From an uncultured Nitrospiraceae bacterium (GTDB taxonomy: Bacteria; Nitrospirota; Thermodesulfovibrionia; Thermodesulfovibrionales; Dissulfurispiraceae): 64,000 bases of DNA. The stretch lies in the NCBI GenBank assembly GCA_963705105.1, contig CAVPIW010000006.1, forward strand, positions 640,001 through 704,000, read 5' to 3'. How positions within the stretch are numbered: the first letter of the stretch is position 1; the number at the start of each line of letters is the position of its first letter. Below, piece by piece: positions 33,805 to 53,752 of the stretch. The translations under genes and the position numbers were made by a program. The notes beneath the pieces are model-generated. The model saw only the letters and a list, made by a program, of their open reading frames with translations. It had not been told where the DNA came from and made no database searches.

Positions 33805-34884
33805 TTACCCCCGTGGCAGACGAAGCACGCTCTCAGCGTTCTCAAGAATGGAATCCGAAAAACCATGAGCCCGTTTGATCATGACGTCCCTGTCAAGGAG
33901 GTTCTTGGTGTTTTTTATCCGTTCGTACTCTTCCCACGATATGTCATGGGTAAACACCGGAAGATGTACCCATCCTTCAATGGGAATGGGAAAGTCTGAA
34001 CCGTGGACGAGCCACTCGGGAGGAAACGTCTCGATGATCTCTTCCAGAATGGGAATCCGCGTCAGCAGAGAAAAGGCGGAGGTATCTCCCCAGAGCTGAA
34101 TCCTGCCGCCCGAGTTAGCGTTATTCATAAAAGCGCCGAATTCCTTCGTCTCATTTTTGTCGATCGGAAACACGGGAGTGGCACAGTGGGCGGCGATCAC
34201 CGTGACGCCGCACTCCAGGGGTGCCTCGAGGAACCTGAAATTGTCCCGCTGCTGTTCCCTGATCCCTTCCGGAAAGGAATACTCGGGTCCGACATGGCAG
34301 AGCAAAGGCATGCGGTTCCTGGCCAGAGATTCGTAATACTCTTTGTGTCTGGGGTCCCGAAGATCGAGGTGCTGCACAGAGGGGATCAGTTTCATGAGCA
34401 CCGCATTCGGATCGCTGAGGACAAACTCCATCTCCTCTGCCCAGTCTTTTCGATTGGGGCTCACCGATGCCGCCCAGTAGAATCTCTTCTCTCTTTTCCT
34501 GGGGTCATCTTCCCTCATCAGCAGGTCATTCAGTTCTTTTACCTTCCTGGACAGAAACCTGTTCGAAACCCAGAGGTCGGTCCTTTTCTTGTCGAGCCTG
34601 CCCGACTTCGGATGGTAGATGGCATCCAGCCCGAGTAACACCATACCGTCGATCTCTTTGGAGTTGGCCAGATGCGAATATATGAGGCTCAGATACTCGT
34701 TCGTATCGACTGTTCCGCTTTCGTCAAAGTCTGCACCGGCTTCTCCGAGGTACTTCTCCACGAGCCTGTAGAGAACTCCCGTGAATAGCGTATTGTTGTC
34801 TTCCGGGTAGAAGAACACGTTTTCGTCGACTTGATTGATGTCCCTCCCTCTCCCCACCACATGTACATGCATGTCGATCTTCAT
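33805..34884 (-). CDS. Amidohydrolase-family protein
   Basis: IDMHVH, LCHVGPE, IAAHCA, GDTSA, HGSDFP. Confidence 0.88.
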   Translation of the reverse strand: MKIDMHVHVVGRGRDINQVDENVFFYPEDNNTLFTGVLYRLVEKYLGEAGADFDESGTVDTNEYLSLIYSHLANSKEIDGMVLLGLDAIYHPKSGRLDKKRTDLWVSNRFLSRKVKELNDLLMREDDPRKREKRFYWAASVSPNRKDWAEEMEFVLSDPNAVLMKLIPSVQHLDLRDPRHKEYYESLARNRMPLLCHVGPEYSFPEGIREQQRDNFRFLEAPLECGVTVIAAHCATPVFPIDKNETKEFGAFMNNANSGGRIQLWGDTSAFSLLTRIPILEEIIETFPPEWLVHGSDFPIPIEGWVHLPVFTHDISWEEYERIKNTKNLLDRDVMIKRAHGFSDSILENAESVLRLPRG

Positions 34885-35421: not shown

Positions 35422-36007
35422 CTATTCTGCACCCCACCAACTGTCTACATCTTGGACGGCCTCGTACACGTGCCGTAATGTAAGACCCTGATCTATGATC
35501 GCCAGCGCGCGCGCCCCAGTTTCCAGCACATAAAACAAGCCCTCGCGTCCAGCCAGTCGGCTTGTCCAGAAGCCATTGCGCAAGACCTGCAGGGCCTTCG
35601 TGTCTTGCCCTATCTGAGCCATGGCCTGTGCCACAGCGCTTAAGGCAGACGCTTTTGACCACTCATACGAAATCGTCTGGGCCATCATCTCCTCGATGAT
35701 GTCTGGCAGGAACTTCATGTTGACATGCGCAGCAGGTCGCGGGTTGCGCTGTTCTTGATTTCCTCATCCGTAAAGGGGCGGACCCATGAACTCGTCAAAG
35801 ACGGACCTGCCGTTCTCCTGCTCGTTCAACGCCGCCTCCATCTCTTCCGCCGAGTATCCGGCGGCAAGCAGCGTCGCCGTAAGAGCACCGGCTGATGTCC
35901 CGAGGATTCGTCGGAAGGTATGGCCCCGCATCGTGAATTCCGAACAGGCTCCGAAAATAACCGATCCCCTTCGCCGCGCCACCTTCAAAGACAAGATCGT
36001 ATTTCAT
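35422..36007 (-). pseudogene. Truncated patatin-like phospholipase, copy B, fused to an unrelated helical-repeat C-terminal fragment
   Basis: MKYDLVFEGGAAKG, frameshift, GTSAGALTA...ALNEQENGRSVF, further frameshifts, MKFLPDII, then KASALSAVAQAMAQIG...VDSWWGAE. Confidence 0.7.
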
Positions 36008-36249: not shown

Positions 36250-39200
36250 CTATTGCTTAGTATGGCACTTCGTGCCAATTAACTTCTTGGCTGAGTCATA
36301 CTTTGCCGTCCAGCGATTGCAATACTGATAGTCAGGGGAGAGGCCTAATACTGGCTCTTCGTTGATGCCCAGATATCTTTCTTCGATCTTGTTTCCAGCC
36401 GGGTCATACGCAAACTTCGTAATGTGTTGGTATCTGCCAAGAAGTCTTGCAGGCTTACCATCTGTTCCAAAATATCTTTTCTCGATAACTCGCCGCTGGC
36501 TGTCATACTTCTGTGTCATTCGAGCATAACCGATTAACTTATCGTACAAAGCGTTATCGTCTCCATAGCAAGCACGCTCTACTTGATTGCCGGCGGAGTC
36601 GTATTTATAGGTCTGGACCGCACAGCTACTGTTCGGAAGTATCTTCGGTCTGCCATCGCCTCCAAAGTAAGCTTCCTCTACGAGATTGCCGCGAGCATCA
36701 TATTTCATACTCATACGCGCATACCCATACTTCGCTTCCGAGGGCTTACTTTTATCATCAAATGCAGAGATTTCCGTGAGGTTCCCTCGATCATCGTATT
36801 TCTTCAATAAGCGTGAGTATTTCGATGCATTCATCACCGGCTGCCCCTCATCGTCAAAGGTCATTTGTTCCACGAGTTGCCTTCGACTATTAAATTTTTG
36901 TGTACATCGATGATATCTGTTCCCTGTCATAATGGGTTTGTTGTCATCTATTCCAAAATAGGCTATCTCCGTCTGATTGCCGTAACCATCGTACTTGGCT
37001 CTGTAACTCGCAAAACCCCATTCATTATTTTCTCCCTGCCATGGAATAAGAACTGGCTTTCTCTCGGTATTCAGATAGACCTGATAGCTCACTTTGCCTT
37101 TAACATCATATTTCATACGAGTTTCTGCATATCCCAGTACGCCTTGTGTAAGTTTCCCATTCGTATCAAAATAGGATTCGCTTGTCATTTGTCCCAATGG
37201 GTCGTACGTCCGTACGATCTTGGCAAATCCTTCGTTGCTATTAGTCAGTTTTCTATTTACAGCATAGTAGGCTATCTCCCGTTCCTTGCCTTGGGTGTTC
37301 CTTTTGATTTCAACTGTTGCGTATCTTGTTCGCTTATTCATAACTACCTTACCATCTAGCCCTTTGTAGGTAACTTCTGTTTCGTTTCCAAGATGATCAT
37401 ACTTATATCCGATCTTGTGGTATCCATCGCGATGGACAATGGGGCCTTCAGGACCAAAATATGCCTTCTCTATTGGACATCCTTCCTCCTTTAAACATCC
37501 CCGTTCGTCGTAAAGCCTCACTTCCCTATGGAACCCTTCATCCTTGTAGAAAGCCGGTTTGTCTTTAGCATCGTAAAACAATTGTTCAGTAACCCTCCCA
37601 AACGGGTCATACTTCTTGACGAGAAGTGCGTAGCCCTCTTCAGAGGTAACACGACTGTCATCAATGCCATAATATGATATTTCGATGGCTTTGCCCTGGT
37701 CGTTATAGCGTCGTTCGACTGAGTGGTAACCACCTTTTATGAACACTTTCTCAACATAGACCCCAAAGTAGGCGCTCTTCTTCTTGTTTCCGCGTAAGTC
37801 ATACTCGTGAATCGCACGCGCCCATCCGTCCTTATGCAAGACAGGCTCCCCATTAATGCCGAAATATGCCTCCTCAATAGGCTGATTTTGCGGATTAAAC
37901 TCTTTCTTCCAATAAGAATACCCGCCAGCTCTTTCATCTTGCCAAGGAACAAATGCTGGCTTGCTGTTGATATCCAAATATCGCAGATCTATAACATTTC
38001 CATGAGCATCATACTTCCTAGTCCAGCCCGCGTAGCCCTTTCGGTGCGTTACCGGACTTCCGTCTAATCCGAAGTACTTTTGCTCTATCTCATTGCCAAG
38101 AGGGTCATATTCGGATGTGTACCCTGCCACTCCGTCGCTTGATAACGTTTGCTCACCCCTTAAGCCTGTGTATGTGCGTCGCCTTTCGTTTCCTCTCTCA
38201 TCATACTCTGATTTCCAACCAGCATAGCCGTCATGCCCACGCATCGGTTTATCCATGACATTCAAATACACAGTCTCAATCTGGTTCCCGCTCGCATCAT
38301 GTTTTGCGGTCCATCCTGTGTATCCCTCAGTGCTTACGATTCGTTTACCATCGGGACCATAATAGCGAACTCTTACGACGTTGCCATAGTTATCAAATTC
38401 CTGTTCCCATCGCGAATAACCCTTGTTAGAAGCAACGGGCTCTCCCTTGATTCCGAAGTAGGTCGCGCCGATCAATTGTCCATGAACATCATAGCCTCCT
38501 GTCACCTGCGCATATCCTTCCTTGATTAAAGTCCGTGCGCCATCAGCCCCAAAATAGGAACTGTCTTCGAGTTTCCCGGAATCATTGTAACGGTACGTCG
38601 CCCGGGCATAGCCGTCCTTAAACTGCGTTAGTCTCCCTGCAGTATCATAGTAGGATGTTTCCACTAGTTTCTTTAGCCTGACGTCATATTTGCCTTTCCA
38701 GACGGCATAGCCATCCTTATTCGCTGTGAGCTTTTGATCGAGGCCAAAGCAACTCAGTTGGATAGGAAGATTGTCTTCGTCATAAGCCAAAACCAGGCTG
38801 TAGCACCCCCTATCGCCCACCGTAGGCTTATCCTCCATATCCAAGTACATCTCTTTGATGATGTTTCCCTGACCATCTCGTTTCCACTTAACTTTATGAT
38901 AGCCTTTTACGTTGAGTGTTTTTTTCCCATTCTCGTCAAAGTAACCCTCCTCAGTCATATTACCATTGTCGTCATATTCACTTCGTATGACCGAATAACC
39001 GCTCTTTAATGTAACTTTCTCTCCTAATGCATCTAAAGCCTCTTGTTTACGCGGGTTCCCAAAACCAAAGGGATCCAGATCCGTTACCTTTATAGTTGCA
39101 TTGCCGGCCTCGTCGTTCATATATTCATCATTTGGCCCCAATGATGTCTGTTCGAGCAATATTCCTTTCTTGTTGTAGCGCCTTAATTGCCCAAAAGCTT

Positions 39201-41550
39201 TATCGGGCCCACGTATGGCCTGATTGCCTCGATTCCGGTAGCGTCTGTATTCTTCGATGCCTTTCCCGGTATCTCTATATTCAATTTCTACATAACTCTC
39301 AGCGTACTGCTTATCCTTGCGAGGATAACCAGTGTCGTCTACAAAATATCCGGTTCGGACTCTCTCCCGCCCGCCTTCGGGAGGTAAATAGACAAATCCC
39401 CATATTCGCTTCCCTTTGTTATCAAGTGCTGTTTCATAAGAAACACGTTCTTGGGCATCGTAATTGAACTCCCAGGCAACCTCATTGGGTATTCGCTCTT
39501 CCGATGATTCGAGATAAGTGCCGATACGATGAATGGGGGTTAATTTTCCCTTGCTATTGACTGTTTCCATGCGAAGAACGGGACCCCATTTGCCTTTTCT
39601 TATGATTTTGATCGAGACAGGACGATGCTGGACCTGTGCGAGCGTCAATTCACCGACTCCTCTCGGCTCGCCTAAGAAAGGGCGATGCTTGACTTTTGCA
39701 AGAATCAATTCGCCGAACCCCTTCGGCTCACTATGGACCTTAACAAAAGAGCTGAAGTATTCGACATAGTCCCAATGCGTCAGATAGCGATGCAGAAGAA
39801 TGCCTACAATCAGCATCAACACCGCTGTGCCGAAACCCACGGCAAGCCGACGCATCATCTTAAGCTTTTCACGTTGTTCGGCCTCACGCTGCAGTGCCGC
39901 TTCCTTCTCCCGCTGCGCGCGATCAAGAGCTTCGGTGCTTGCCTGAACAAACTCCTTCTCGAGACGCGTGAGGTCTGCCTGCTTTCTTGCCTCTTCCAGC
40001 TGCCATTCCCTAAACAGACCATCCCAGTCTTTGGATTTTCCTTTTGCCTCCCATTGATGCGCCGCCTGAGTAAGGGAGAGGCGATCACGAAGGATGCGGC
40101 GTTTATCATCGATCCACCCTGCTAAGAGCGGCCAGTTGCGGACCAGTGACTCGTGCTTGATCTCGACCACATCGTCGGCACCACTGACGCCGGGCGTGAT
40201 GCGCAAGTAGTCGTTCTTCTTAAGCAGTTCAAGCACTTCCTCCGTGTTCGCCTTGCCAGCCTGCAGCAAGCGGCTTTTGGGCAATGGCTGGCGATAAGCC
40301 TCGAGCATCTCATCGACGCGTACCAACTCGAGGAGTATACGCTTGATCTCTGTCTGGGTTTGCTCTATTTGTGCGAGGTAGAAGGTATCGGCGGCGTTCT
40401 TGAGTGCCTCCAGGGGATCGCCTACTGTTCTGTAAACCTCCCAGGTGATTCGGTTTCGTTTGCGTTTCTCCCAAAGTGCGTGCAAGGTGAATTGTAACAA
40501 CGGAAGCGCCGCGGGCTGGCCGAGCACCTTCTTCACTAGGTCGTCTACAATTCCTGATTGGAACTGTAAGTTTACAAGGGCAGCAGGCTTCTCTACCGCC
40601 GCCGTTAATTCCTCATAACTCATTGGCCGCATCCAGTACCTTGAGGGGCTCAGTTCACGCAACTCATTGATCTTACTATCGAACTCAGCACGCACGGTCA
40701 GAATCACACGGTGGCCCCGAGCGGCATCCAATAGATGAGCGAGGTTTCTTACCAGTGCCTCACGGTCTGCGGGGTCGGACAGCGTGAACACTTCCTCGAA
40801 CTGGTCGATAGTGATCAGTGCAGTCACCGCGTTTTCTTCGCCAAGCATGGCATAAAGATATTTGGGATCCTGCCGAAGGCGTGTCACCTCCTCTGCGACG
40901 ATGCTGTTCGCGGCTGGGTGGGCTTGTCGAACAGCATTTACTAGGTTGTCGAGTACGGAATTACCCGGAACAAATGGCGGAATGACGAACAACTCAGGCA
41001 TCGCGCCTTTCTCCTTGAGCGCCGGCAGAATGCCCCCCATCACAAGGGAAGACTTCCCGCTACCAGACGCGCCAAGCACGACAACAAGCGGCTCTTGACG
41101 AAGTTTCGTCAGCAGCTCCTTTATGTCATCCTCTCGGCCGAAGAAGTTCGCCCGGTCGCGAAAGGCATCGAGGCCGACATAGGGACATAGCTTGTCCTTC
41201 AGGTCCGGCAGTTTCTCGCTGTCGAAGGGGGCCAGGTTTGCAGGCGGTACCACGATCCCCGCCCTAAACAGGCAGGAGACCCAATAGTCCAAAAGCACCT
41301 GGCAATCAGAGCGCTGAAGGATCTCTTCGATATAGACCCCTGTCGCTGCCCCACGTTCCAAGAATTGCCTGAGCTTTGGTTCAAGCCTCGCCAATGCGAC
41401 TGCTTCGCTCTTATCGGCTGCGTCTTTCTTAAGCTCAATACTCAAAGCTTTCATGAAGGCGGCGTGCTCATCCTGCAGCTCGGTCGCACTCTCGAAGGGC
41501 TCCACTCGGCGAAACTGGTCCGGATTTGACATATCTTCCCTTTCTAACAT
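36250..41550 (-). CDS. NLR-like nSTAND1 NTPase with N-terminal helical domain, one TM helix and C-terminal YD/RHS-like repeats
   Basis: CPYVGLDAF...FFGRE, Walker A GASGSGKSS, Walker B IDQFEEVFT, LPLLQFTL, IKHESLVRNW; TM LAVGFGTAVLMLIVGILL; more than 20 GY-x5-YD-x2-G-x6-Y-x-G/D-x-DG repeats; alternative start 41532. Confidence 0.88.
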   Translation of the reverse strand: MLEREDMSNPDQFRRVEPFESATELQDEHAAFMKALSIELKKDAADKSEAVALARLEPKLRQFLERGAATGVYIEEILQRSDCQVLLDYWVSCLFRAGIVVPPANLAPFDSEKLPDLKDKLCPYVGLDAFRDRANFFGREDDIKELLTKLRQEPLVVVLGASGSGKSSLVMGGILPALKEKGAMPELFVIPPFVPGNSVLDNLVNAVRQAHPAANSIVAEEVTRLRQDPKYLYAMLGEENAVTALITIDQFEEVFTLSDPADREALVRNLAHLLDAARGHRVILTVRAEFDSKINELRELSPSRYWMRPMSYEELTAAVEKPAALVNLQFQSGIVDDLVKKVLGQPAALPLLQFTLHALWEKRKRNRITWEVYRTVGDPLEALKNAADTFYLAQIEQTQTEIKRILLELVRVDEMLEAYRQPLPKSRLLQAGKANTEEVLELLKKNDYLRITPGVSGADDVVEIKHESLVRNWPLLAGWIDDKRRILRDRLSLTQAAHQWEAKGKSKDWDGLFREWQLEEARKQADLTRLEKEFVQASTEALDRAQREKEAALQREAEQREKLKMMRRLAVGFGTAVLMLIVGILLHRYLTHWDYVEYFSSFVKVHSEPKGFGELILAKVKHRPFLGEPRGVGELTLAQVQHRPVSIKIIRKGKWGPVLRMETVNSKGKLTPIHRIGTYLESSEERIPNEVAWEFNYDAQERVSYETALDNKGKRIWGFVYLPPEGGRERVRTGYFVDDTGYPRKDKQYAESYVEIEYRDTGKGIEEYRRYRNRGNQAIRGPDKAFGQLRRYNKKGILLEQTSLGPNDEYMNDEAGNATIKVTDLDPFGFGNPRKQEALDALGEKVTLKSGYSVIRSEYDDNGNMTEEGYFDENGKKTLNVKGYHKVKWKRDGQGNIIKEMYLDMEDKPTVGDRGCYSLVLAYDEDNLPIQLSCFGLDQKLTANKDGYAVWKGKYDVRLKKLVETSYYDTAGRLTQFKDGYARATYRYNDSGKLEDSSYFGADGARTLIKEGYAQVTGGYDVHGQLIGATYFGIKGEPVASNKGYSRWEQEFDNYGNVVRVRYYGPDGKRIVSTEGYTGWTAKHDASGNQIETVYLNVMDKPMRGHDGYAGWKSEYDERGNERRRTYTGLRGEQTLSSDGVAGYTSEYDPLGNEIEQKYFGLDGSPVTHRKGYAGWTRKYDAHGNVIDLRYLDINSKPAFVPWQDERAGGYSYWKKEFNPQNQPIEEAYFGINGEPVLHKDGWARAIHEYDLRGNKKKSAYFGVYVEKVFIKGGYHSVERRYNDQGKAIEISYYGIDDSRVTSEEGYALLVKKYDPFGRVTEQLFYDAKDKPAFYKDEGFHREVRLYDERGCLKEEGCPIEKAYFGPEGPIVHRDGYHKIGYKYDHLGNETEVTYKGLDGKVVMNKRTRYATVEIKRNTQGKEREIAYYAVNRKLTNSNEGFAKIVRTYDPLGQMTSESYFDTNGKLTQGVLGYAETRMKYDVKGKVSYQVYLNTERKPVLIPWQGENNEWGFASYRAKYDGYGNQTEIAYFGIDDNKPIMTGNRYHRCTQKFNSRRQLVEQMTFDDEGQPVMNASKYSRLLKKYDDRGNLTEISAFDDKSKPSEAKYGYARMSMKYDARGNLVEEAYFGGDGRPKILPNSSCAVQTYKYDSAGNQVERACYGDDNALYDKLIGYARMTQKYDSQRRVIEKRYFGTDGKPARLLGRYQHITKFAYDPAGNKIEERYLGINEEPVLGLSPDYQYCNRWTAKYDSAKKLIGTKCHTKQ

Positions 41551-42668
41551 ACTCGCAAGAGAGTCTGTAACGGTTGGTTTAGTTCACTCAGCCGGTTGCA
41601 AAAATCCTTAAGTCTTCTGTCGGCTTCCCGGAACGCGGTACCCACAAACTGCGAGTAGTTCATGAGTAAGATCCTCGCCTGCTTCTTGTCATTATGATCT
41701 AGTGCTTCATCGATAACGATTTCCATCTGACTCAGCTTTTCCTTAAGATTGTCCATGTCTTTGTCTATGAAGGGTGGTATGAGCTCTGAAGCTGCCGTCT
41801 TGGTCAATTCCCACTCACAATCCAGCCCCCCCGGTGAGAGTTTATTTGCAAGCAGGGCGCGCAACCCATCATCTAGCCTCTGTAGTTGGCCATGCTCCCT
41901 GACTCGTCTCTCAAGATCTGCTCGCAACCCGTTCAGTGCATTTATGCTCTGAACAAACTGCACAAGTAAGACATCGTTCTCAGGATGCTCCACGGACAGA
42001 GTTTCCTTTACCGACTCTAATAGCTCCACAAGACGATTCAGCTTCAGCTCCTTTGCAGCGTTAGATATCATAGAATCGAGCCTCGGTGGAATTCTGGAAC
42101 GCAGCTGTTCGAGCCCAGTCTTCACCTTGTCTAAGATAGCAGTATTTTCGGGTGCATTCACAGCCTCTTGGAAGTCCGCTTCAATTAAATCGAGTCGCTT
42201 ACCAAGATCTGGAAAGGGGTCGGTCTCACGTCCCCTGATTGCCTCCTTGATCTGATGAGATTGTTGATCAAATTGAAATTGAAGCGGATCCAGCCAAATT
42301 CTGGTCCTCCTAAGTGCCTGCATTTGGCGAAGGATTTCGAATTCAATAGTATGCAAGGAATCATGAATGGTCTTCAAAAGTTGCATCTCACTGATTCGCT
42401 GTGCAGTATCCCGCATTTCTTGGGAGAGGGTTACCCCGTTGCATGCCGTTGGATCATTGGAAATCCGGTCTGTGAGCTGTTTGAGGCCTATCTTTACAGA
42501 GTCAAGTAAACCCGGAAAGTTGATAACTATCTTGTCGCCTCTCACCTCATCCCCATGGACGAGTTTGTCACGTCCTACAGAATCGCCGCCGACGCTGACA
42601 TTGTCCTTGAAGTACGCGCCACCGGCCTTTTGATCAGCCCCTGATTCCTTTCCGTCTTCAGTCGTCAT
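41544..42668 (-). CDS. Alpha-helical hypothetical protein with N-terminal GGAY...VSVGGD.VGRDK.VHGDEVRGDKI motif (putative adaptor)
   Basis: 374-aa ORF overlapping the STAND gene start; motif shared with caspase 42753-44150. Confidence 0.75.
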   Translation of the reverse strand: MTTEDGKESGADQKAGGAYFKDNVSVGGDSVGRDKLVHGDEVRGDKIVINFPGLLDSVKIGLKQLTDRISNDPTACNGVTLSQEMRDTAQRISEMQLLKTIHDSLHTIEFEILRQMQALRRTRIWLDPLQFQFDQQSHQIKEAIRGRETDPFPDLGKRLDLIEADFQEAVNAPENTAILDKVKTGLEQLRSRIPPRLDSMISNAAKELKLNRLVELLESVKETLSVEHPENDVLLVQFVQSINALNGLRADLERRVREHGQLQRLDDGLRALLANKLSPGGLDCEWELTKTAASELIPPFIDKDMDNLKEKLSQMEIVIDEALDHNDKKQARILLMNYSQFVGTAFREADRRLKDFCNRLSELNQPLQTLLRVC

Positions 42669-42752: not shown

Positions 42753-44150
42753 CTATTTCCCCTGAATCTTATCCAGCACGAATTTGGTGACCGGCCCGGC
42801 GATTCCACCCAGAATCGGGGAGGCAAAAATACTCGCAATACCACTCACTGCTTCTGGAACTAGGGCAATCAGTCCATCGATCAGCTTGCCCATCTTGTTA
42901 TCATCAGCTGCCTTCCCTTTTGCTACTTCCTGTTTTAGCTCCTCTACCTTCTTCAGAGCCTCTGTCTGATTGGCGGCGGGCACTTCCCGAATGGATGACA
43001 TCAACGGTTCGAACAATCTTTGAAGGTCCTGATCAGATATCCCTGTGGTGACGGTGGACCGGGCGCCCCGGCCGATGGCGATCCCCTGACCAGAAATGTC
43101 CCCCACCGTTATCCTGTCGCCTAGAATTTTATCGCCTCTCACCTCGTCTCCATGGACGACCTTGTCACGGCCTACAAAATCGCCGCCGACGCTGACAGCC
43201 CCCCCGATGTACGCACCGCCGCCAGTATCAATAGTGGTCACAGTACCTGCTTTTTCACCCTCAAGAGGTGCGAGCGGATCGGGTGCTGCCAAACCCTTCG
43301 CTATACCTTTGCCGCCCAGGAGCAATGCGATCGGGAAGTTCCCGCTTACCTGGTAATCCGGCTCCTGCGGCTGACCCCAGTCAGCTTTCACGCTTTCCGG
43401 TACGTTGCGCCACACATAACTCATCACGTCGGAGACTAACACCTCCTTGGCACCCTCTTCGGGCTGCGCATGGCCAGTCAGCGCTTCGATCAAGTGATAG
43501 GTAAAGATGCTCATCTTCCCGTCCTTGCGCATATAAGAAGGTTGTTCTCCCTGTGAGGAACTCAGCACAGCCCGACCTGCTCCTTTGGTCAGCACTTCCA
43601 AACCCTTAGCGCCTTCCTTTGGAGTTACTCCCTTGGCTGCTGACATGAATATTTGCGTTGGAATGGCAGATCGCTTGTAAGAAGCAATGCCTTTAATTCC
43701 CATGCCGCCGGAATGACAACAGTCAAGTACTACGAAGAGACGCTGTGGTTTAAGAGCATTAATGGCATCAGCGAAGTCCTCTGCCCTGAGAGCACTTGAT
43801 TTGAATGCCTCCTCGTCCACGTCGTACGGAATGAGAAAATACTGAGGCTGCTGGCCGTCGTCTCGGTCTCCATGTCCTGAGTAAAACACGATAGCCGTGG
43901 CATTTCCGCTTGCATCATCGTTAATCTTCTTCTTTAGTCGGGTTAGCCCTCCAAGGATATTCGCGCGAGTCGAATTCGACCCCAGGATGACTTCGACGTT
44001 TTTCTCAAGATAGGCACACCGCTCCGGATGGACAAGTACATTTTGCAGAGCCGTAACATCTTTTTCCACATCAGGAAGAGCCCATGTGGGATTGCTGTTT
44101 TCGTTAACTCCAATCAACAACGCATATCCACTAATGAATTGCTTTGCCAT
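42753..44150 (-). CDS. Caspase-like (peptidase C14) protease with Gly-rich repeat motif and C-terminal helical domain
   Basis: YALLIGVN, catalytic FYSGHG and LDCCHSG, SIFTYHLIEALTG; GGAGGAGG RBS before ATG 44150. Confidence 0.9.
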   Translation of the reverse strand: MAKQFISGYALLIGVNENSNPTWALPDVEKDVTALQNVLVHPERCAYLEKNVEVILGSNSTRANILGGLTRLKKKINDDASGNATAIVFYSGHGDRDDGQQPQYFLIPYDVDEEAFKSSALRAEDFADAINALKPQRLFVVLDCCHSGGMGIKGIASYKRSAIPTQIFMSAAKGVTPKEGAKGLEVLTKGAGRAVLSSSQGEQPSYMRKDGKMSIFTYHLIEALTGHAQPEEGAKEVLVSDVMSYVWRNVPESVKADWGQPQEPDYQVSGNFPIALLLGGKGIAKGLAAPDPLAPLEGEKAGTVTTIDTGGGAYIGGAVSVGGDFVGRDKVVHGDEVRGDKILGDRITVGDISGQGIAIGRGARSTVTTGISDQDLQRLFEPLMSSIREVPAANQTEALKKVEELKQEVAKGKAADDNKMGKLIDGLIALVPEAVSGIASIFASPILGGIAGPVTKFVLDKIQGK

Positions 44151-44281
44151 TTCCTCCTCCACCTATGGTCGGTTCTGATAAAGAGTGAGACATCCAACAC
44201 GGTACAAGCGTTCCCCTTAGTCATCTCATTCGAGAACCTGTTGTACTAGAGTAGAGCTGATCGGCATTTCTCTTTGTTTGT

Positions 44282-45079
44282 TCAGAAGCCGGAGACCTTG
44301 ACAAAGGCGCTCTCACTGGCGAGCTGCCCCACTCTATCTGACTTTTTCTTCTTGATCCCTTTAATGGCCGCTGATCCTGTCTCCAGCGGCTCGTATGTCG
44401 TGTAGCGCCCCTGATCATAGAAAAGACGCACTGCCTGAAAGCCGAACACAAGCGGAATGGAGGACTCGTATGTCACCTTGGAGGTTACCGAGGATGCGCC
44501 TGAGGTTTTCACGTTCCCGCCCACGATGCCTTGAATCTCAGGGATGCTGACATCGAGCGCCGCTCCATTTGATTTCTTCGCTTCAACAGTGAACTTCGTC
44601 CCCTTGATGGTCGCCGTGGTGACATACAGTTCATCCGCTTCCAACAAGTCCGCGACGTAGCGGGAGAAAGGGCTCACATCAGCGTCTGCCAGGTACTGGT
44701 CAAGTTTGATAATCTCAACGCTGTCCTCGAACACATCCTGAAATTCGAACGCGGCTGTCTTTGCCTGCTCATACTTCATATCGAGCCCGAGTTTTGAGCC
44801 GCCCATCGCACCGATTATGCTGCCGAGGATCGACAAACCAACTCCTATGCTCAGGTCACCTGTGCGCTGACCCGAGATATCGGCAGTACGGGCATTCTGG
44901 ATGGCCGGCGGGGAAATATTCTTGCCGGCCACGAGGAGTGTTGTCAGATCGCCCAGGCGAGTGAGGTCCTTCCCGTTGCGGGATAACACTTGAAGCGGCT
45001 TGACATCTGCCTTGGGCAAACGAATCACATTATAGCCAAAAGACTTGAGATAGGTGAGGAATGGATCGTTGCAGAACAT
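44282..45079 (-). CDS. bGSDM: Bacterial gasdermin
   Basis: N-terminus MFCNDPFLTYLKSFGYNVIRLPKADVKPL resembles, from memory, Runella gasdermin (MECNDPF...GYSLVAYPK) including Cys3; 265 aa; alternating beta-strand core; PLVFGF near C-terminus; lies between two caspase-like proteases. Confidence 0.88.
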   Translation of the reverse strand: MFCNDPFLTYLKSFGYNVIRLPKADVKPLQVLSRNGKDLTRLGDLTTLLVAGKNISPPAIQNARTADISGQRTGDLSIGVGLSILGSIIGAMGGSKLGLDMKYEQAKTAAFEFQDVFEDSVEIIKLDQYLADADVSPFSRYVADLLEADELYVTTATIKGTKFTVEAKKSNGAALDVSIPEIQGIVGGNVKTSGASSVTSKVTYESSIPLVFGFQAVRLFYDQGRYTTYEPLETGSAAIKGIKKKKSDRVGQLASESAFVKVSGF

Positions 45080-45247: not shown

Positions 45248-46072
45248 CTACACAAAGCGGGCCTTCCTCTTGGTCGCCTCGCACTCCAGCTGAGGTATCT
45301 GGCTGTAATGACCGGCTTGAAGTCCTTTTCTGACCTGCTCGAGCACCTTTTTTCGGGAAAGCTTGTTTTTGCTGTCATTCATCACCTTGCAGAAGTGGTA
45401 GGTGAAGGCCCCGTGCCAGCCCCCAGCGATGTATGCATCAGCGCTGGTCTGATCAGACCGGCAGCCTGCCCAGAGGATGTGATGGATAATGCCTTTTTCG
45501 AGCATCGATTCATACAGTCCGCGGGATCGACGCCCCTCGACCATCTTGAAGGCTTCGTAGGAAGGGGGCGGCATCCATCGCGGTTTGCGGTCAGGCAGGA
45601 AATCAAGAGCTTTGATGCCCGTGCCGCTGTGGCAGGTATCAAGATAGACTTCCAGTAGGACGTTCGCCGGCAACTGGACGAAGAGATCATGCAATTCGTC
45701 ATCGACAATGATGTATTTCGGGTCCCAGATACTCCCGGCCGACGCCAGGTCATGGGGGCAGACGGCCTCGTCTGCTCTATCCGGCTCGTCCCCGCTCGTA
45801 TCCGGCACCTGGGTCCCGTGGCTGGACAGGCTGAAGACCAGGTAACTGTATTTCCCCTTCTTGGCCCCGTCTACCATTTCCTTGAGATTCTTCATGATGT
45901 TCGCTTTCGTGGCCTGGGTGTCTGTCAACTTGACGATATCTCCAGGGCCAAAACCGAGCCACTTCTTGAGCAGGGCTTCCATGTCATTGGCGTCATTCAC
46001 ACAACCCTGTAACGCGCTGCCGGGATAGTTTTTGAAGTTGTTGATCCCCACACACAGAGCTCTCTTTGCCAT
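45248..46072 (-). CDS. Caspase-like (metacaspase, peptidase C14) protease, single domain
   Basis: KRALCVGIN, LQGCVNDA, SSHGTQ, DEAVCPHD, DDEL, LDTCHSG, GAFTY, QIPQL; GGAGG RBS before 46072. Confidence 0.93.
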   Translation of the reverse strand: MAKRALCVGINNFKNYPGSALQGCVNDANDMEALLKKWLGFGPGDIVKLTDTQATKANIMKNLKEMVDGAKKGKYSYLVFSLSSHGTQVPDTSGDEPDRADEAVCPHDLASAGSIWDPKYIIVDDELHDLFVQLPANVLLEVYLDTCHSGTGIKALDFLPDRKPRWMPPPSYEAFKMVEGRRSRGLYESMLEKGIIHHILWAGCRSDQTSADAYIAGGWHGAFTYHFCKVMNDSKNKLSRKKVLEQVRKGLQAGHYSQIPQLECEATKRKARFV

Positions 46073-46120
46073 GATTTTCTCCTCCTTGTTCGTTTTCATG
46101 CTCATGACCTCCTTCTGAGA

Positions 46121-48217
46121 TCATTCCGTTACAATCCATATGGGGTTTGTTACGCACCGGAAAAGCCCCTCGCCCGTCTTGGGGTTTATGCGTGAAGCGG
46201 CCTCCATCCGCAGGTAGCAGGGACTCTCTGTCCATGCTGAAAATGTGTGTACGATGCTGCCATGGAAGCCGCTTTCTTTGTTCCCGAGAGTCGGGAGACC
46301 GATTTCATCGGTTATGTCTGTTTCGGCATCAGCAGTGCCCCGAAAGAGATGTATTCTTTCAATGGGCCCGAACTCCTCATTACTTTGCCATTCAATATGC
46401 AGGTCGAGACTTTCGCCGGGTGGAATAGTGAAAGTGTCGCCAAATCGGTACTCCTTCTCATCTCCTTTCTTGCGGAGGGAGAAAAACACAATGGGGCCAT
46501 CGCTCAGAAGGGCCCTGCCGGCTTTCAGAGCGCCGAGAAGATCAGCCTCAGTCAGCGCCTCGCCAGCCTCTTTCGGCAGATACGCCAGGGTGCGCACCTT
46601 GCCAAAGGCGTTGTCGTTGAGAGTGTGGATGAAGAACACAGGATGGGGGCGGAAGGCACAGTTGAAGTCCATATGGGCGTCTGAGCCGGCGAGGACAAAG
46701 TACTTCTTCAGTGTCTTTATCTGCGTATATTCCCGCAATGACGGCCGGAGAAAGTGCTCAACCCAGTGCTCACGGATTCCCGTGTCAAGATCATGCGACC
46801 AGGACTTCTTCTTGTCAGTCTTTTTGAACATCTCATAGGGATCGAGGTAGGGGCGGTCGATCGAGGAGTCGGTAGTACACTCCATGAGGATCTTTTCATT
46901 GAAGATCTGAAGACCACAGAACAGGTCTCTGTATCGGGGATTCATGACGACGGCATAATCCTCTTCGTGCCAGATGTACCCGTTTGAGGAGGGGTGAGCG
47001 GCATACAGGAATCCCTGTCGGGGCTGCGGACTCAGTAGTATCCGTTCAAAAACCTCTGCCATCGTCAGGGTTCCGAATCCCGCGATGTGCGTGTCCTCGA
47101 TGAAGGGATTATCGTAAGAAAGGACATGCAGGCCGGCAAAGTATTTCCTCACGGTGACCTCTTCGGCGGCGACCAAGAGGACATCGGGATATCGTATGTT
47201 TGTATCAGCCACTGCCTTCTTGTAAGAAGACCAGCGGTTTCCCTGCTCTTCTTCCTCGTCGGTCTTCGTGTGGCCAAGGCAATAGGAATGGTCGGTCACT
47301 GTCACCCAGGCAAGACCCGTTGCTCTGGCTACCTCGGCACTCATCGGCAGGGGGCTGCCGTACTCGTAAGGGTTGTCGGTAAAGTCAGAGTGGAAATGCG
47401 TGTCACCATACAGCCATCCGTCAACCCGGGGTAGATCGTATTCAGAGACAAGAGTGCGGAGGACGATCTGCTTACTCCTGTCGATTCCGAGAAAGCCTTC
47501 AAATGTGATGATGACGCAATAATGGAGGTAACGGGCCTTTCCATACGCGGGATGGGTCCAGTCGACGGGCGTGAAACATTTCCTGTCGAGATGAATGATC
47601 CTGTACCAGGGATCGGTGTTGACCGTCTCGTAATCCTCGCCTTCGTCGAACCTCAGGGGAGCAGGCATGCCGTTTTCCTCGACCTCTGCACCTTTGGTGT
47701 CAAGCACCTTCACTATACTGCCGGGAGGAAGCGACTGCGGCGTGCCTCCCGATGACGACGTCCAATGATTGAAGGCGATGGATCGGATTCTGATCTTTAC
47801 GGGACCAACGTCTTTAAGGTATACAATCACAGGGACATAAGGGCAGCTCTTTTCAAGCCGGTAGGGCGCGTCGACCACGAGATCCATGGCAGGCGTATTC
47901 GGCTGTTTTGCGGCTGCTCTCTTTTCAAATTTGTGTTCTACTTTGTCCTTGTCCAGCTCTATTGTTTGGCCCTTGACGATAGGACGTCCGGTGTCGGCAT
48001 CTATGACCTTGAGCGTATAGGTGCCCCTTGGAATGCCTTCAATCTCGACGTAATATGTGCCATTATCTTTCTTTAGCTTGGTGTAGTCCTCCAGGGCGGT
48101 TCGAATCACTTTCCTGGATCTCTCTCGCTTGAGCTCGATGATCACCGGCTGCCAAAAGCGACCCATTTCATGGTCACCGATGTCGAAAGCAACCCGTATT
48201 GTTCCTCTATCTCCCAT
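46121..48217 (-). CDS. PHP-domain (CehA/McbA-like) metallohydrolase with N-terminal beta-sandwich domains
   Basis: GDTHFHS, VTDHS, AAEE, AAHP, AGSDAH, ALKAGR, C-terminal TNPIW. Confidence 0.8.
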   Translation of the reverse strand: MGDRGTIRVAFDIGDHEMGRFWQPVIIELKRERSRKVIRTALEDYTKLKKDNGTYYVEIEGIPRGTYTLKVIDADTGRPIVKGQTIELDKDKVEHKFEKRAAAKQPNTPAMDLVVDAPYRLEKSCPYVPVIVYLKDVGPVKIRIRSIAFNHWTSSSGGTPQSLPPGSIVKVLDTKGAEVEENGMPAPLRFDEGEDYETVNTDPWYRIIHLDRKCFTPVDWTHPAYGKARYLHYCVIITFEGFLGIDRSKQIVLRTLVSEYDLPRVDGWLYGDTHFHSDFTDNPYEYGSPLPMSAEVARATGLAWVTVTDHSYCLGHTKTDEEEEQGNRWSSYKKAVADTNIRYPDVLLVAAEEVTVRKYFAGLHVLSYDNPFIEDTHIAGFGTLTMAEVFERILLSPQPRQGFLYAAHPSSNGYIWHEEDYAVVMNPRYRDLFCGLQIFNEKILMECTTDSSIDRPYLDPYEMFKKTDKKKSWSHDLDTGIREHWVEHFLRPSLREYTQIKTLKKYFVLAGSDAHMDFNCAFRPHPVFFIHTLNDNAFGKVRTLAYLPKEAGEALTEADLLGALKAGRALLSDGPIVFFSLRKKGDEKEYRFGDTFTIPPGESLDLHIEWQSNEEFGPIERIHLFRGTADAETDITDEIGLPTLGNKESGFHGSIVHTFSAWTESPCYLRMEAASRINPKTGEGLFRCVTNPIWIVTE

Positions 48218-48917: not shown

Positions 48918-49424
48918 CCGCACCTGTTATCTCTGCATCTTCCTGATTATTTCGCCCAGCTTCTTGATTTCTTCTCCGTATAACGCCCAGTTCCCCTCCC
49001 TTTGGGCATTCATAGCGCGGTCATAATGCTCCCTGGCATTCGAAGCGAGATTCTTTTCATCCTTCACAGCAGGAAGCTGCAGGGACTTCAAAGGCGCCGC
49101 CTCTTCCGAGACCCTGACATCGCCGAATATCCTCGAAAGCGCGGCATCGAGCGTCTCCTCCATGGCGATGCGGTTTTCGTATGCGACGACGACCCTTTTG
49201 AGTTCCGGTATCTTGCCCTTGTCCGCCCTGAGGTAAAGCGGCTGAACATATATCAGGGAATTTTCGATCGGTATAACCAGCAGGGTCCCCTGCATCACCT
49301 GTGAGCCGCGCTGGTCCCAGAGAGATACCTGCCTTGATATCTCGGTATCCTGATTGATTCTGGCGACTATCTGTTTCGGCCCGTACACGAGCCTGTCCTT
49401 CGGAAAACGGTATTACGAGCTTCC
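48918..49424 (-). pseudogene. Duplicated 3' ~500 bp of the UPF0182 gene
   Basis: Near-identical to 51044-51552 with scattered substitutions (IIRKMQR vs IIKKMQK); 5' part of the gene missing. Confidence 0.9.
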
Positions 49425-50396: not shown

Positions 50397-50630
50397 ATGA
50401 GTGAAAAGAAAGAATATAGATTTACCGTCCTCGTTGAACCCTGTGCAGAAGGTGGGTATTTTGCCATGTGTCCCGCTTTCCCGGGATGTCACGTGGAAGG
50501 AGAAACGTATGAAGAAACGCTTCAAGAGATGAGACGGGCGATAGATGCATTTATCGAGGACTATATCGAGGAGGGAGAGGCAATTCCCGATGATGATGTA
50601 ACCATCACCACCCTGAAGGTGGCTGTGTGA
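50397..50630 (+). CDS. hicB: HicB-family antitoxin
   Basis: FTVLVEPCAEGGYFAMCPAFPGCHVEGETYEE. Confidence 0.88.
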   Translation: MSEKKEYRFTVLVEPCAEGGYFAMCPAFPGCHVEGETYEETLQEMRRAIDAFIEDYIEEGEAIPDDDVTITTLKVAV

Positions 50631-50866
50631 GTCCGAAGTTTCCCGCCGTAACGTCAGATGAGGTCATCAGGATAATCACGAAGATGGGTTTCAGGTTCAA
50701 GCGCCAGGCCGGTACCAGCCACGCTATTTATTTCAGGGAGAGTGATAAGCGCAGGACGACCATTCCTGTGCACTCCGGCAAGACCGTAAAACGAAAAACC
50801 CTCAAGTCAATACTATTCGACATAGGCCTGACAGTTGAGGAATTCTCCGAACTCCTTCACAAATAA
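50627..50866 (+). CDS. hicA: HicA-family toxin (mRNA interferase)
   Basis: IITKMGFRFKRQAGTSHAIY...TTIPVHSGK...TLKSIL; GTGA overlap with hicB. Confidence 0.88.
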   Translation: MSPKFPAVTSDEVIRIITKMGFRFKRQAGTSHAIYFRESDKRRTTIPVHSGKTVKRKTLKSILFDIGLTVEEFSELLHK

Positions 50867-51052: not shown

Positions 51053-53752
51053 TTATTTCTGCATCTTCTTGATTATTTCGCCCAGCTTCTTGATTTCTTC
51101 TCCGTATAACGCCCAGTTCCCTTCCCTCTGGGCATTCATAGCGCGGTCATAATGCTCCCTGGCATTCGAAGCGAGATTCTTTTCATCCTTCACAGCAGGA
51201 AGCTGCAGGGACTTCAAAGGCGCCGCCTCTTCCGAGACCCTGACATCGCCGAATATCCTCGAAAGCGCGGCATCGAGCGTCTCCTCCATGGCGATGCGGT
51301 TTTCGTATGCGACGACGACCCTTTTCAGCTCCGGTATCTTGCCCTTATCCGCCCTGAGATAAAGCGGCTGAACATATATCAGAGAATTTTCGATCGGTAT
51401 AACCAGCAGGGTCCCCTGCATCACCTGTGAGCCGCGCTGGTCCCAGAGAGATACCTGCCTTGATATCTCGGTATCCTGATTGATTCTGGCGACTATCTGT
51501 TTCGGCCCGTACACGAGCCTGTCCTTCGGAAATCGGTATACCACGAGCTTCCCGTAGTTATCTCCGTCACTGCGTGCAACCATCCAGGCCGAGAGGTTGT
51601 CCTTTTTCTTCGGGTTGAAGGGAAGCATCAGGATAAACTCTTCCTTCTTCTCTTCAGGCAGTTTCATGATCGTGTAATACGGCTCCATCACCTCTTCTTT
51701 CGCGGCGGTCCCCATTGCGGGTATCTCCCACTGGTCTTCCTTGTTGTAGAAGATCTGCGGGACCTCCATGTGATAGGTCGAATACACCAGGGTCTGAAGA
51801 CCGAAGATATCCAGGGGATACCTGACATGTCTCTTCAGGTCAGCCGGCATTTCAGAAAAGGGCAGAAGCGTGCCGGGGAAAATCCTGCTTATCGTCCTGA
51901 TAATGGGGTCATCCTTGTCTGCCATGTAAAACTTCATGCTGCCGTCGTATGCGCTGATGGTCACTTTCACCGAGTTCCGTATGTAATTGATCCCGTTCCC
52001 TATGGGCTGCGAATAGGGGAATCGTCTGCTCATTGTATAGGCGTCGTACATCCAGAAAAGTCGGCCGTCATCAGACACGACCATGTACGGGTCGTGGTCA
52101 AACTGAAGAAACGGCATCACCTTGCTGACTCTCTGAAGGATATTTCTGTTGTACAGGACCCTGCTTTTATCGGTTATGTCATTGGAGAGGAGCAGCTTCA
52201 GCGAGCCGTAATAGACCGAGAAAGCGAGTTTCCTGAAGAATGAATCTATGACGACCCCGCTTTTGCCTGCATACTCCGCAAAGACATTCGCCTCTCCTGA
52301 CGGATAATCGAACTCCTTTGACTTTGTATTGACGATGACATATTTGCTGGACAGCTTGCCGTAGTAGATTTCGGGCCTGCTGACCTTTATGTTGGCCACA
52401 GCCGACACCGGGGGAATATCCTTAATAAGCAGCACCGGGAGTCCTTCGGGTGTCACCTGGTTCACCGGCCCGAGGGTCAGGCCGTATCCATGGGTAAAGG
52501 TCAGGGTCTCGTTTATCCAGTTTCGTGTCGGGATGCTTTCCGTCGACAGTTCTCTGGGGGAAAGCATCGTCTGGCGGTATTCCCCGTTGATCATATAACG
52601 GTCATTGCCGACCATGGTGAAGTCGTAATAGGTGCGTATCTCCTGAATCTGGCTGAAGGTATCAAGCAGCGGACGGTGGTCCCAGAGGCGGATATTCTTT
52701 ATGGTCGCACTGTTTTTCTTAATGTCATCCCGGTTAATCGTGGTGCTGCCCGAGGTGTCCCTTTCTTCGACCGAGTCAAGGCCGAAGCCCTTCCTTGTTG
52801 ACGCTATATTATGCTTGATATAGGGGGTTTCCTTTACGAGTTCATTCGGCGCGACGACCAGTTTCTGGAGAATGGCCGGGTACAGGGAGTTGCCGATAAG
52901 CGATGCTGCGAAATAGAGCGCTACGGTCCCGATCAGGATCAGATTGCGTCTCAGGACGATATTGCCTATGAAGAGGGCTGCGGAGGCCAGCGCGATGAAT
53001 ATCTGTGCTTTCATGAAGGGGATGACCGCATGAACGTCCGTGTAGATCGCACCTGCCACGTGACCATGCGACGAATACAGGATGGCATGCATCCCCGTAT
53101 ACGTCCTGAATGCCAGCACAAGAAAAATGAGAGACCCGATCACGGAGAGATGTGCTGAGGCGGAGCGCTCAGAGACGAAGCCTCTCGGGGTCAGCAACAC
53201 GGCGCCCTTCACCAGGTAGTTCAGGACTGATACAACAAGGGATGCCCCCAGAGTGAACATCAGGACCGAGGATATGATGTCGTATGCAGGGAGGGTAAAC
53301 AGATAGAACGAGACGTCTTTGCCGAATATCGGATCAGTATAACCGGCATCAACCTTATTGAAATAAGAGAGGACTTCCAGCCAGCTGTTATTGAGCAATA
53401 ATCCCGTAAAAAATCCGATTGCTGCCGGCGCAATGATCTTCAGGCGGTCAACATGTCTCAGGATATAAAGCTGAGGCATTGCCTGATTGTCAAAGGTCAG
53501 GGCGACAGACCTGCCCTTTGTCGCCTGCATGGAGATCCAGATGTTTATAAAGGAGATGATAAAGCCCGCAAGCCCGCCGGCCAATGCCAGGATTGCCTGG
53601 GCACGTAACCGGACAGTAAACATATCCTCGAAGTTGACATCTTTAAACCACAGCCAGTCAACATACAGAGAAATGAACTGCGGCAGAAGAAACAGGGCAA
53701 GAATGAATGCGAATAAGACTGACAGTATCTTTTTCGGTAATCTTACGGGCAT
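51053..53752 (-). CDS. UPF0182-family membrane protein
   Basis: YVDWLWF, DPIFGKDVSFYLF, NIRLWD, QEIRTYY, THGYG, NYIRNSVK, FYNKEDQW, YVQPLYL. Confidence 0.92.
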   Translation of the reverse strand: MPVRLPKKILSVLFAFILALFLLPQFISLYVDWLWFKDVNFEDMFTVRLRAQAILALAGGLAGFIISFINIWISMQATKGRSVALTFDNQAMPQLYILRHVDRLKIIAPAAIGFFTGLLLNNSWLEVLSYFNKVDAGYTDPIFGKDVSFYLFTLPAYDIISSVLMFTLGASLVVSVLNYLVKGAVLLTPRGFVSERSASAHLSVIGSLIFLVLAFRTYTGMHAILYSSHGHVAGAIYTDVHAVIPFMKAQIFIALASAALFIGNIVLRRNLILIGTVALYFAASLIGNSLYPAILQKLVVAPNELVKETPYIKHNIASTRKGFGLDSVEERDTSGSTTINRDDIKKNSATIKNIRLWDHRPLLDTFSQIQEIRTYYDFTMVGNDRYMINGEYRQTMLSPRELSTESIPTRNWINETLTFTHGYGLTLGPVNQVTPEGLPVLLIKDIPPVSAVANIKVSRPEIYYGKLSSKYVIVNTKSKEFDYPSGEANVFAEYAGKSGVVIDSFFRKLAFSVYYGSLKLLLSNDITDKSRVLYNRNILQRVSKVMPFLQFDHDPYMVVSDDGRLFWMYDAYTMSRRFPYSQPIGNGINYIRNSVKVTISAYDGSMKFYMADKDDPIIRTISRIFPGTLLPFSEMPADLKRHVRYPLDIFGLQTLVYSTYHMEVPQIFYNKEDQWEIPAMGTAAKEEVMEPYYTIMKLPEEKKEEFILMLPFNPKKKDNLSAWMVARSDGDNYGKLVVYRFPKDRLVYGPKQIVARINQDTEISRQVSLWDQRGSQVMQGTLLVIPIENSLIYVQPLYLRADKGKIPELKRVVVAYENRIAMEETLDAALSRIFGDVRVSEEAAPLKSLQLPAVKDEKNLASNAREHYDRAMNAQREGNWALYGEEIKKLGEIIKKMQK

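Follow-up and report, generated by a model that had tools for sequence, protein, structure and literature searches.

A Bacterial Gasdermin Between Two C14 Caspases and Its Predicted Cleavage After a Conserved Basic Loop Residue

The window analyzed here, a stretch of 64,000 nucleotides from an uncultured Nitrospiraceae bacterium, encodes a bacterial gasdermin (bGSDM) between two C14 caspases. Across the models considered, this gasdermin is very probably cut after Lys240, in the loop that precedes its C-terminal tail. The full model gives caspase 2 a preference for Lys and has it read both K157 and K186 in its own loop as well as cleave the gasdermin after K240; it appears to us evenly poised between right and wrong. 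Residue numbering is that of the window's ORFs throughout, and papers given by identifier are cited from the portions of their text that were available.

Gene Organization of the Locus

The genes lie on the minus strand in the order CehA-like hydrolase, caspase 1, gasdermin, caspase 2, 374-aa protein and nSTAND1 NTPase.

46121..48217, minus strand: CehA/McbA-like metallohydrolase, upstream of caspase 1 (NF038032 match below cut-off)
45248..46105, minus strand: caspase 1, type-I-metacaspase-like C14 protease (PF00656, E 8e-30)
44282..45079, minus strand: bacterial gasdermin, 265 aa (NCBIfam NF051890, PADLOC bGSDM, model vs 7N51)
42753..44162, minus strand: caspase 2, C14 protease with C-terminal Gly-rich motif and helical domain (PF00656, E 3e-18)
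43119..43226, minus strand: Gly/Val-rich GGDxVGRDK motif in caspase 2 (BLASTP vs 374-aa protein)
41544..42668, minus strand: 374-aa putative adaptor, GGDxVGRDK motif at residues 15-47 (motif match to caspase 2)
36250..41550, minus strand: nSTAND1 NTPase, putative sensor, with a hydrophobic segment and long RHS/YD-like repeats (PF20703, E 3e-88; PF05593, E 3e-7)

PF00656 genes flank the gasdermin on both sides, with a protease adjacent as in other bGSDM systems. At another locus, L002, an 85% identical orthologue of the metallohydrolase occupies the same position. Caspase 2 shares the Gly/Val-rich motif with the 374-aa protein, where it is N-terminal (42531-42626; BLASTP E 5e-15); it is possibly an amyloid-like or beta-solenoid recruitment motif. 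The arrangement recalls that of BASS pairs, where one short motif occurs in an effector's C-terminal region and at the N-terminus of a neighboring NLR (10.1101/2020.01.06.895854, whose available text does not give GGDxVGRDK); here the partner is the 374-aa protein upstream of the NTPase, and the pair is a putative one. The 374-aa protein has no match in Pfam, NCBIfam, PADLOC or Atlas, and direct comparison reveals no similarity to the nSTAND1 protein. A promoter and terminator scan gave matches at chance level only.

Further features were recorded around the cluster. A patatin remnant (window 35764-36007), split over two frames, follows the nSTAND1 gene and resembles the intact patatin that ends a second caspase cluster, on contig C13. 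Downstream of the gasdermin cluster, both the window (33805-34884) and L004 (7288-8793) have an amidohydrolase-like gene, and BLASTP between the two gives no match at E 1e-3. The 3' end of the gene for an 899-aa membrane protein is duplicated almost exactly about 2.1 kb away (window 48927-49388 and 51053-51430), and a small toxin-antitoxin-like gene pair (50397-50866) lies between the copies of this apparent duplication.

The Gasdermin and Its Loop

The 265-aa protein matches NF051890 at 220 bits (cut-off 100) and PADLOC bGSDM (PDLC02986) at E 1.9e-87. Its AlphaFold2 model has the bGSDM fold, superposing on 7N51 with Z 27.8 and rmsd 2.7 over 252 aligned residues (range 1-265). The following features are assigned.

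45071..45073, minus strand: Cys3 (codon TGC), predicted palmitoylation site, aligned to Cys3 of the Runella structure
44360..44362, minus strand: K240, predicted P1 residue (conservation, loop position)
44285..44359, minus strand: C-terminal tail G241-F265, 25 residues and 2.67 kDa, predicted inhibitory peptide (model, alignment to 7N51)

Re-reading of the ORF bears out the C-terminus given by the earlier sequence-only reading, GSAAIK-GIKKKKSDRVGQLASESAFVKVSGF, in which K is residue 240 and 25 residues follow. Cys3 is Cys in 91 of 119 relatives. Residues 238-247, the predicted disordered loop with K240, have pLDDT below 50 in the model; the tail becomes ordered near residue 250 and lies inside the part aligned to 7N51.

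Among the 119 close relatives (the best 120 of 546 homologues minus the query), Arg fills column 240 in 69, Lys in 36 and Glu in 13, with one gap. The column is basic in 105/119, and the site has the form hydrophobic-K/R-[GASD] in 85/119. On a quick tree of 118 rows the column undergoes 21 changes of K/R, at least six of them forced by starred branches, and Glu needs two changes. In the distant set (the best 150 of 1423 representatives, reduced to 144 by dropping six tail-less rows) column 240 is the sole basic peak of the loop, with K or R in 74; the other 70 carry A, S, E, G and others. The 13 close relatives with Glu and the 70 distant ones with neither K nor R count against the main model.

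Conservation alone does not mark a cut, because K261 of the tail is K/R in 98/119 close relatives yet is placed in a strand of the model. By analogy, a role in the pore could also explain the conservation of column 240: in the Runella protein, residues preceding the cut are packed within the activated domain and have a structural role in the pore (PMC13475620, available text). A cut after K240, as the sequence-only reading proposed, finds good support in conservation, in position, in the fusions and in the acidic S1 residues kept by the neighboring proteases. K159, in the other [IA]K[GA] of the gasdermin, was rejected as a cut site, being in a beta-strand of the model.

Acidic S1 Residues and Caspase 1

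The pocket residues of TbMCA2 are D95, S156 and D211, of which D95 and D211 are the acidic S1 residues (PMC4357240, available text). Both caspases keep residues matching these three (D38/D156 in caspase 1, D35/D147 in caspase 2), and a basic P1 is therefore predicted for both. Caspase 1 has an H96/C158 dyad together with C35, D38, S94, D156, D223 and G232, the dyad and the listed pocket residues being fixed in 120 relatives taken from 2456 homologues. It matches Yca1, AtMC9, AtMC4 and TbMCA2 at E 1e-25 to 1e-15, and its GCVND, DxxGDE..DE, DDEL and SAD motifs, which stand for the Cys92-like pocket Cys, the acidic Ca-binding motifs and the L5 Ser-x-Asp, align with Yca1 and the Candida enzyme, as in type I metacaspases at the level of sequence. 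From the spacing we infer that D223 is the match of the AtMC4 pocket S350-x-D352 (10.1101/2020.03.09.983940, available text). Basic residues follow the catalytic Cys at two sites.

45611..45613, minus strand: caspase 1 K165 (Cys+7), K in 101 and R in 19 of 120 relatives
45521..45523, minus strand: caspase 1 R195 (SR-GL), second basic loop site, R in 106/120 relatives

Given these counts, caspase 1 probably accepts both Lys and Arg. The conserved SR195-GL site was absent from the list of the sequence-only reading.

Protease Partners at Other Loci and in Fusion Proteins

Single-sequence scans returned one genome locus and nine metagenome loci, and a profile scan was positive in 2/61, 3/401 and 4/317 genomes, the window's own genome included; the gasdermin scans of plasmids and of viral contigs returned none. 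The distinct cases compared are few: the window, L001, L002, L004 and L005. L001, L003, L008 and L013 share one gasdermin or caspase and count as a single case. L009 is a gasdermin fragment, L010 was set aside as a weak match, and L006 and L007 show no protease in the DNA examined.

The gasdermins of L002 and L001 are 95% and 86% identical to that of the window and both keep AAIK-GI. The caspases encoded downstream of them share only 31% (L002) and 28% (L001) identity with caspase 2, and both are of the Ser/Lys type described in the next section. In the window, L002 and L001 alike, the gene directly downstream of the gasdermin encodes a Ser-type caspase, the only protease seen at L001. This swapping of protease partners around a near-constant gasdermin fits the recognition of a short motif. 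The L012 and L014 gasdermins, which read PMK/R-AL and have no adjacent protease in the DNA examined, and L005, where an Arg gasdermin precedes a CHAT protease, count against the main model.

Two loci drew separate attention. At L001 (670-4629) replication- and partition-like genes precede the gasdermin, caspase-TIR and TIR-NTPase-WD40 genes, which suggests that a mobile element carries the set. At L015 (4346-6248 and 12092-14302) a distant gasdermin lies between a membrane protein gene and a metallophosphoesterase-like gene, with no adjacent protease, and an HNH/RuvC-like nuclease gene is found nearby.

Gasdermin-C14 fusions are represented by five sequences (four of 936-954 aa, one partial) and by a sixth case in which a caspase-like segment begins and an apparent frameshift follows. 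Column 240 is Arg in 6/6 of these, and Cys+7 is Arg in all five with a readable catalytic region; in the gasdermin-subtilase fusions column 240 is Ser in 2/2, beside Met or Phe. In fusions, the loop column tracks the protease class. The gasdermin parts of the caspase fusions are 40-50% identical, and these proteins have probably diverged from a single origin, so they do not amount to six independent events. Single-chain gasdermin-C14 fusions include P0260, P0262, P0271 and P0273 (also P0328, P0258 and P0511), one with a weak DUF4384 match. P0250, P0332, P0277 and P0310 carry other fusion partners: a subtilase in two of them, otherwise a GDSL-like domain or a combination of peptidoglycan-binding and GH19 domains.

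These data bear on which enzyme would cut. We consider it unlikely, though deserving of serious weight, that caspase 1, a calcium-type and Lys/Arg-tolerant protease, cuts after K240, alone or once activated by caspase 2. Such a role is consistent with L004, where a Lys gasdermin lies directly downstream of a 69% identical caspase 1 orthologue, with the full metacaspase pocket including D223, with the fused caspases, whose GCVxD and GxLT motifs resemble those of caspase 1's type, and, by analogy, with the published two-protease cascade of SAVED-CHAT and PCaspase. Against it, L001 shows no caspase 1-like gene beside its 86% identical gasdermin, and the upstream caspase of L002 differs from caspase 1 (28% identical), being again of the Ser/Lys type. 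In our reading the most likely enzyme is caspase 2.

Caspase 2 and the Lys-to-Arg Switch

Caspase 2, which likely starts at the ATG at ORF residue 5, has an H97/C149 dyad with D35, S95 and D147; among 120 relatives (of 859 homologues) H97 is retained in 120/120 and C149 in 119/120. Its model has a pLDDT of 86, and its nearest folds are AtMC9, GSU0716 and MALT1. V32 and M211 occupy the positions at which type I metacaspases have the Cys92-like Cys and the L5 acidic residue. By sequence it is a predicted basic-P1-type C14 enzyme and not a canonical type I metacaspase.

43692..43694, minus strand: caspase 2 K157 (Cys+8), predicted self-read site, K in 116 and R in 3 of 120 relatives
43605..43607, minus strand: caspase 2 K186, second predicted self-read site, K in 112 and R in 4 of 120
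43509..43532, minus strand: caspase 2 M211 and S218, predicted to line S1; S218G and M211N in 4/4 of one clade and 0/115 others
43296..43298, minus strand: caspase 2 K289, candidate site where the protease domain gives way to the C-terminal region, K in 94 and R in 4 of 120

The four motifs that the sequence-only reading listed for caspase 2 (MGIK157-GI, AAK177-GV, GAK186-GL and IAK289-GL) are all present in the ORF 42753-44162; K177 was rejected as a key site, being K in 73/120 relatives. TGIK165-AL of caspase 1 is likewise present, but its supposedly equivalent place is off by one (Cys+7 vs Cys+8 in caspase 2). Tested as a motif defined after the data were seen, and against a crude proteome of 1907 ORFs and shuffles, [IA]K[GA] occurs five times in caspase 2 vs 0.51 expected from the ORFs (shuffle mean 1.17, P=0.004); at least five copies occur in 2/533 ORFs of similar length, a set that should include caspase 2 itself. 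Caspase 1 is not enriched (1 vs 0.31 expected, P=0.27), and the broader gasdermin-type motif is unremarkable in caspase 2 (4 vs 1.5 expected, with 53/533 ORFs reaching 4). The strict [I/A]K[G/A] form was rejected as a family rule. It fits 3/119 gasdermins, 14/120 sequences at K157 and 14/120 at K165, so the single [I/A]K|[G/A] specificity proposed for both caspases is too narrow. Of the shared caspase and gasdermin specificity proposed with it, the part that finds support is the recognition by caspase 2 of its own loop lysines, through the concerted switch described below; caspase 1, with both Lys and Arg sites, does not conform.

The loop Arg variants of caspase 2 are confined to one four-member clade (SH-aLRT 97, quick tree). 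Among the 117 columns that are at least 90% conserved in the other 115 caspase 2 sequences (one misaligned row omitted), this clade changes only Y13 (F in 2/4), K157 (Arg in 3/4), K186 (Arg in 4/4) and S218 (G in 4/4). Being found in one clade, the switch is a single event. Two separate loop sites change together with pocket residues, which argues that pocket contact is needed. This concerted change of loop and pocket suggests that the enzyme reads its own loop lysines, and contact between the pocket and these lysines is, in our estimate, fairly probable.

The profile-profile alignment of the two caspases is unreliable after the catalytic Cys, and a 22-sequence MAFFT alignment was used, in which M211 of caspase 2 aligns with D223 of caspase 1 and S218 with G232. 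By its motif, we take S218 to be at the position of Ser347 of caspase-1, the hyphenated enzyme of the literature. That Ser347 is a P1-pocket residue (PMC6438033, available text). The roles of S218 and M211 are predicted from motif alignment.

The 22 caspases were chosen by hand and include 7 of 18 plasmid matches. With Ser at the 218 position, Lys is found at Cys+7 to +9 in 11/11, in one case with Arg next to it; one of these Ser-type enzymes, the upstream caspase of L002, is a separate lineage. With Gly at this position (11 caspases), eight have Arg at Cys+7 to +9 and three have Lys with Arg at the second site. More distant caspases show mixed loops, including a Gly type with Lys, so Gly at the 218 position does not force Arg.

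The distant caspases of L030 and L047 carry ALES-F or ALER-F directly after the catalytic Cys. Separately, 13 Glu-class gasdermins (P0057, P0061, P0077, P0098 and others) have ALES-V/ALER-V loops that mirror them, and no locus links both. We note the ALES/ALER loops of L030 and L047 as a lead toward a putative Glu-reading caspase class.

The window's genome holds seven C14 matches. Three gasdermin-free C14 paralogues on C13 have TR-AA or LR-AA after the catalytic Cys, and a 402-aa gene product near them carries AVTR-GA and ITR-AA. A basic loop residue is therefore not specific to gasdermin systems, occurring as it does in caspases of the same genome with no gasdermin nearby; judging from these motifs, the caspase loop residue may mirror the substrates of each system. 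In the second cluster itself (L055, G000:C13:43000-61125), the three C14 paralogues are joined by a papain-family gene in two copies, a CHAT protein, the 402-aa TR-GA protein, a TPR protein, an NTPase and a patatin, and an apparent transposase interrupts the cluster.

The same data would also allow a gasdermin cut after K240 together with caspase loop lysines that stay uncut, as pseudo-substrates or structural residues, with no autoprocessing, a reading to which we assign a low probability. Several observations are in line with it. Cys+7 and Cys+8 may be too near the catalytic residue for a cut in cis, Asp or Glu follows K157 in 67/120 relatives, a helix of the model begins at K186, gasdermin-free caspases commonly have a basic residue at this place, and MALT1 is listed as dimerization-activated, with self-inhibition by a loop (PMC4357240, available text). 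Against these stand the joint switching of two separate sites with the pocket residues and, by analogy, the inhibitory Lys225 of AtMC4, which is also cut, and the orthocaspase MaOC1, which autoprocesses (PMC5756287, available text). In the model of caspase 2, K157 lies in a segment with pLDDT below 50. We retain the reading in which caspase 2 would cut its own loop.

Other Cut Positions in the Gasdermin Loop

The Runella gasdermin is cut at L247|G248 by a CHAT protease, with Gly needed at P1' (10.1101/2021.06.07.447441, available text). The alignment with the Runella protein ends at gasdermin residue 228 (Runella 236), and an ungapped extrapolation over 11 residues puts the Runella bond at I239|K240. 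A cut elsewhere in the loop (within KKKK 243-246 or after I239), with K240 kept for folding, membrane contact or pore assembly, is very improbable: the hydrophobic Runella P1 that maps to I239 by extrapolation, and four further lysines that a promiscuous basic-specific protease could use, are outweighed in our view by the lack of conservation of the KKKK run (K/R in 6, 42, 1 and 10 of 119 close relatives at columns 243-246), the Gly requirement and CHAT enzyme of the Runella system, the tracking of protease class in fusions, and the Glu, Ala and Ser that replace K240 in other clades, by which a basic charge there is not universally needed.

Relation to Known Systems

The locus resembles the bGSDM systems of Johnson et al. 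(Vitiosangium 7N51, Runella 7N52) in fold, Cys3, the short tail after a flexible loop and the adjacent caspase-like proteases; C14 neighbors account for 15 of the 59 proteases in the bGSDM survey (10.1101/2021.06.07.447441, available text). The Runella system differs in its CHAT protease and non-polar P1, whereas here a basic P1, C14 enzymes, two caspases and an nSTAND1 sensor are found or predicted. In the literature searched, the Runella bond was the only natural bacterial gasdermin cut found mapped. Other bGSDM sites have been predicted and engineered (PMC10153256), and the available text on the Lysobacter gasdermin gives no cut residue (PMC10312443). The fungal HET-Q1/HET-Q2 pair has a short-tailed gasdermin cut at a similar position, F238; its protease is a subtilase and its P1 is hydrophobic, and its counterpart is found in the gasdermin-subtilase fusions, not in this locus (PMC8851545, available text).

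Among bacterial caspases, the LcCaspase-LcHydrolase module is close, a C14-type caspase cutting a neighboring death effector at conserved putative Arg-Gly sites; it differs in having a hydrolase as its effector and Arg at P1, and the available text (PMC12642450) reports no matching site within the protease. PsCaspase of type IV Thoeris (10.1101/2024.10.24.620036) is a C14 enzyme with a basic P1, as predicted here, but is Arg-strict and promiscuous, and PCaspase (10.1101/2023.06.23.546230) is a C14 enzyme activated by cleavage, but cut by another protease; the available parts of these two reports give no gasdermin substrate. Like both caspases here, the metacaspases AtMC4, TbMCA2 and Yca1 have acidic S1 residues. 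Caspase 2 differs from metacaspases in having no Cys92 equivalent and no L5 acidic residue, and in a Ser where the aligned metacaspases have Gly. AtMC4 self-cleaves at linker Lys225, which sits in its own pocket (10.1101/2020.03.09.983940, available text); that site lies 86 residues after the Cys, vs 8 and 37 in caspase 2.

bGSDM-C14 operons and Arg-cutting bacterial caspases are already known. In the openly accessible main texts searched, no C14 cleavage site mapped on a bacterial gasdermin turned up, nor did a lysine-specific bacterial caspase or a natural gasdermin-caspase fusion.

Proposed Mechanism and Conclusions

The preferred model would proceed as follows. The nSTAND1 sensor and the 374-aa adaptor would recruit caspase 2 through the common Gly/Val-rich motif, and the clustered caspase 2 would cut its own loop after the catalytic Cys. 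It would likewise cleave the gasdermin after K240, within a short hydrophobic-Lys/Arg-small motif; with the 25-residue tail released, the N-terminal domain would assemble pores that kill the infected cell. Caspase 1, which probably tolerates both Lys and Arg, may amplify the cutting or serve as its backup.

A wider and rather doubtful proposal, drawn from the same sequence comparisons, is that bacterial C14 caspases carry their own target motif after the catalytic Cys, and that gasdermin loops are swappable cassettes matching it. Lys loops would go with Ser-pocket, Lys-specific caspases, Arg loops with Gly-pocket caspases (including the fusions), and possibly Glu loops with the ALE-loop class. 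If this were true, both the cleavage site and its cognate enzyme could be read from sequence alone.

The analysis names a candidate class of lysine-specific bacterial caspases and two residues predicted to set Lys vs Arg preference, and the gasdermin-caspase fusions offer a one-gene system for activation tests. With a basic-P1 rule, roughly half of the best-scoring distant gasdermin representatives (74/144) would be covered, and C14-activated gasdermins could be tested for precisely and cheaply.
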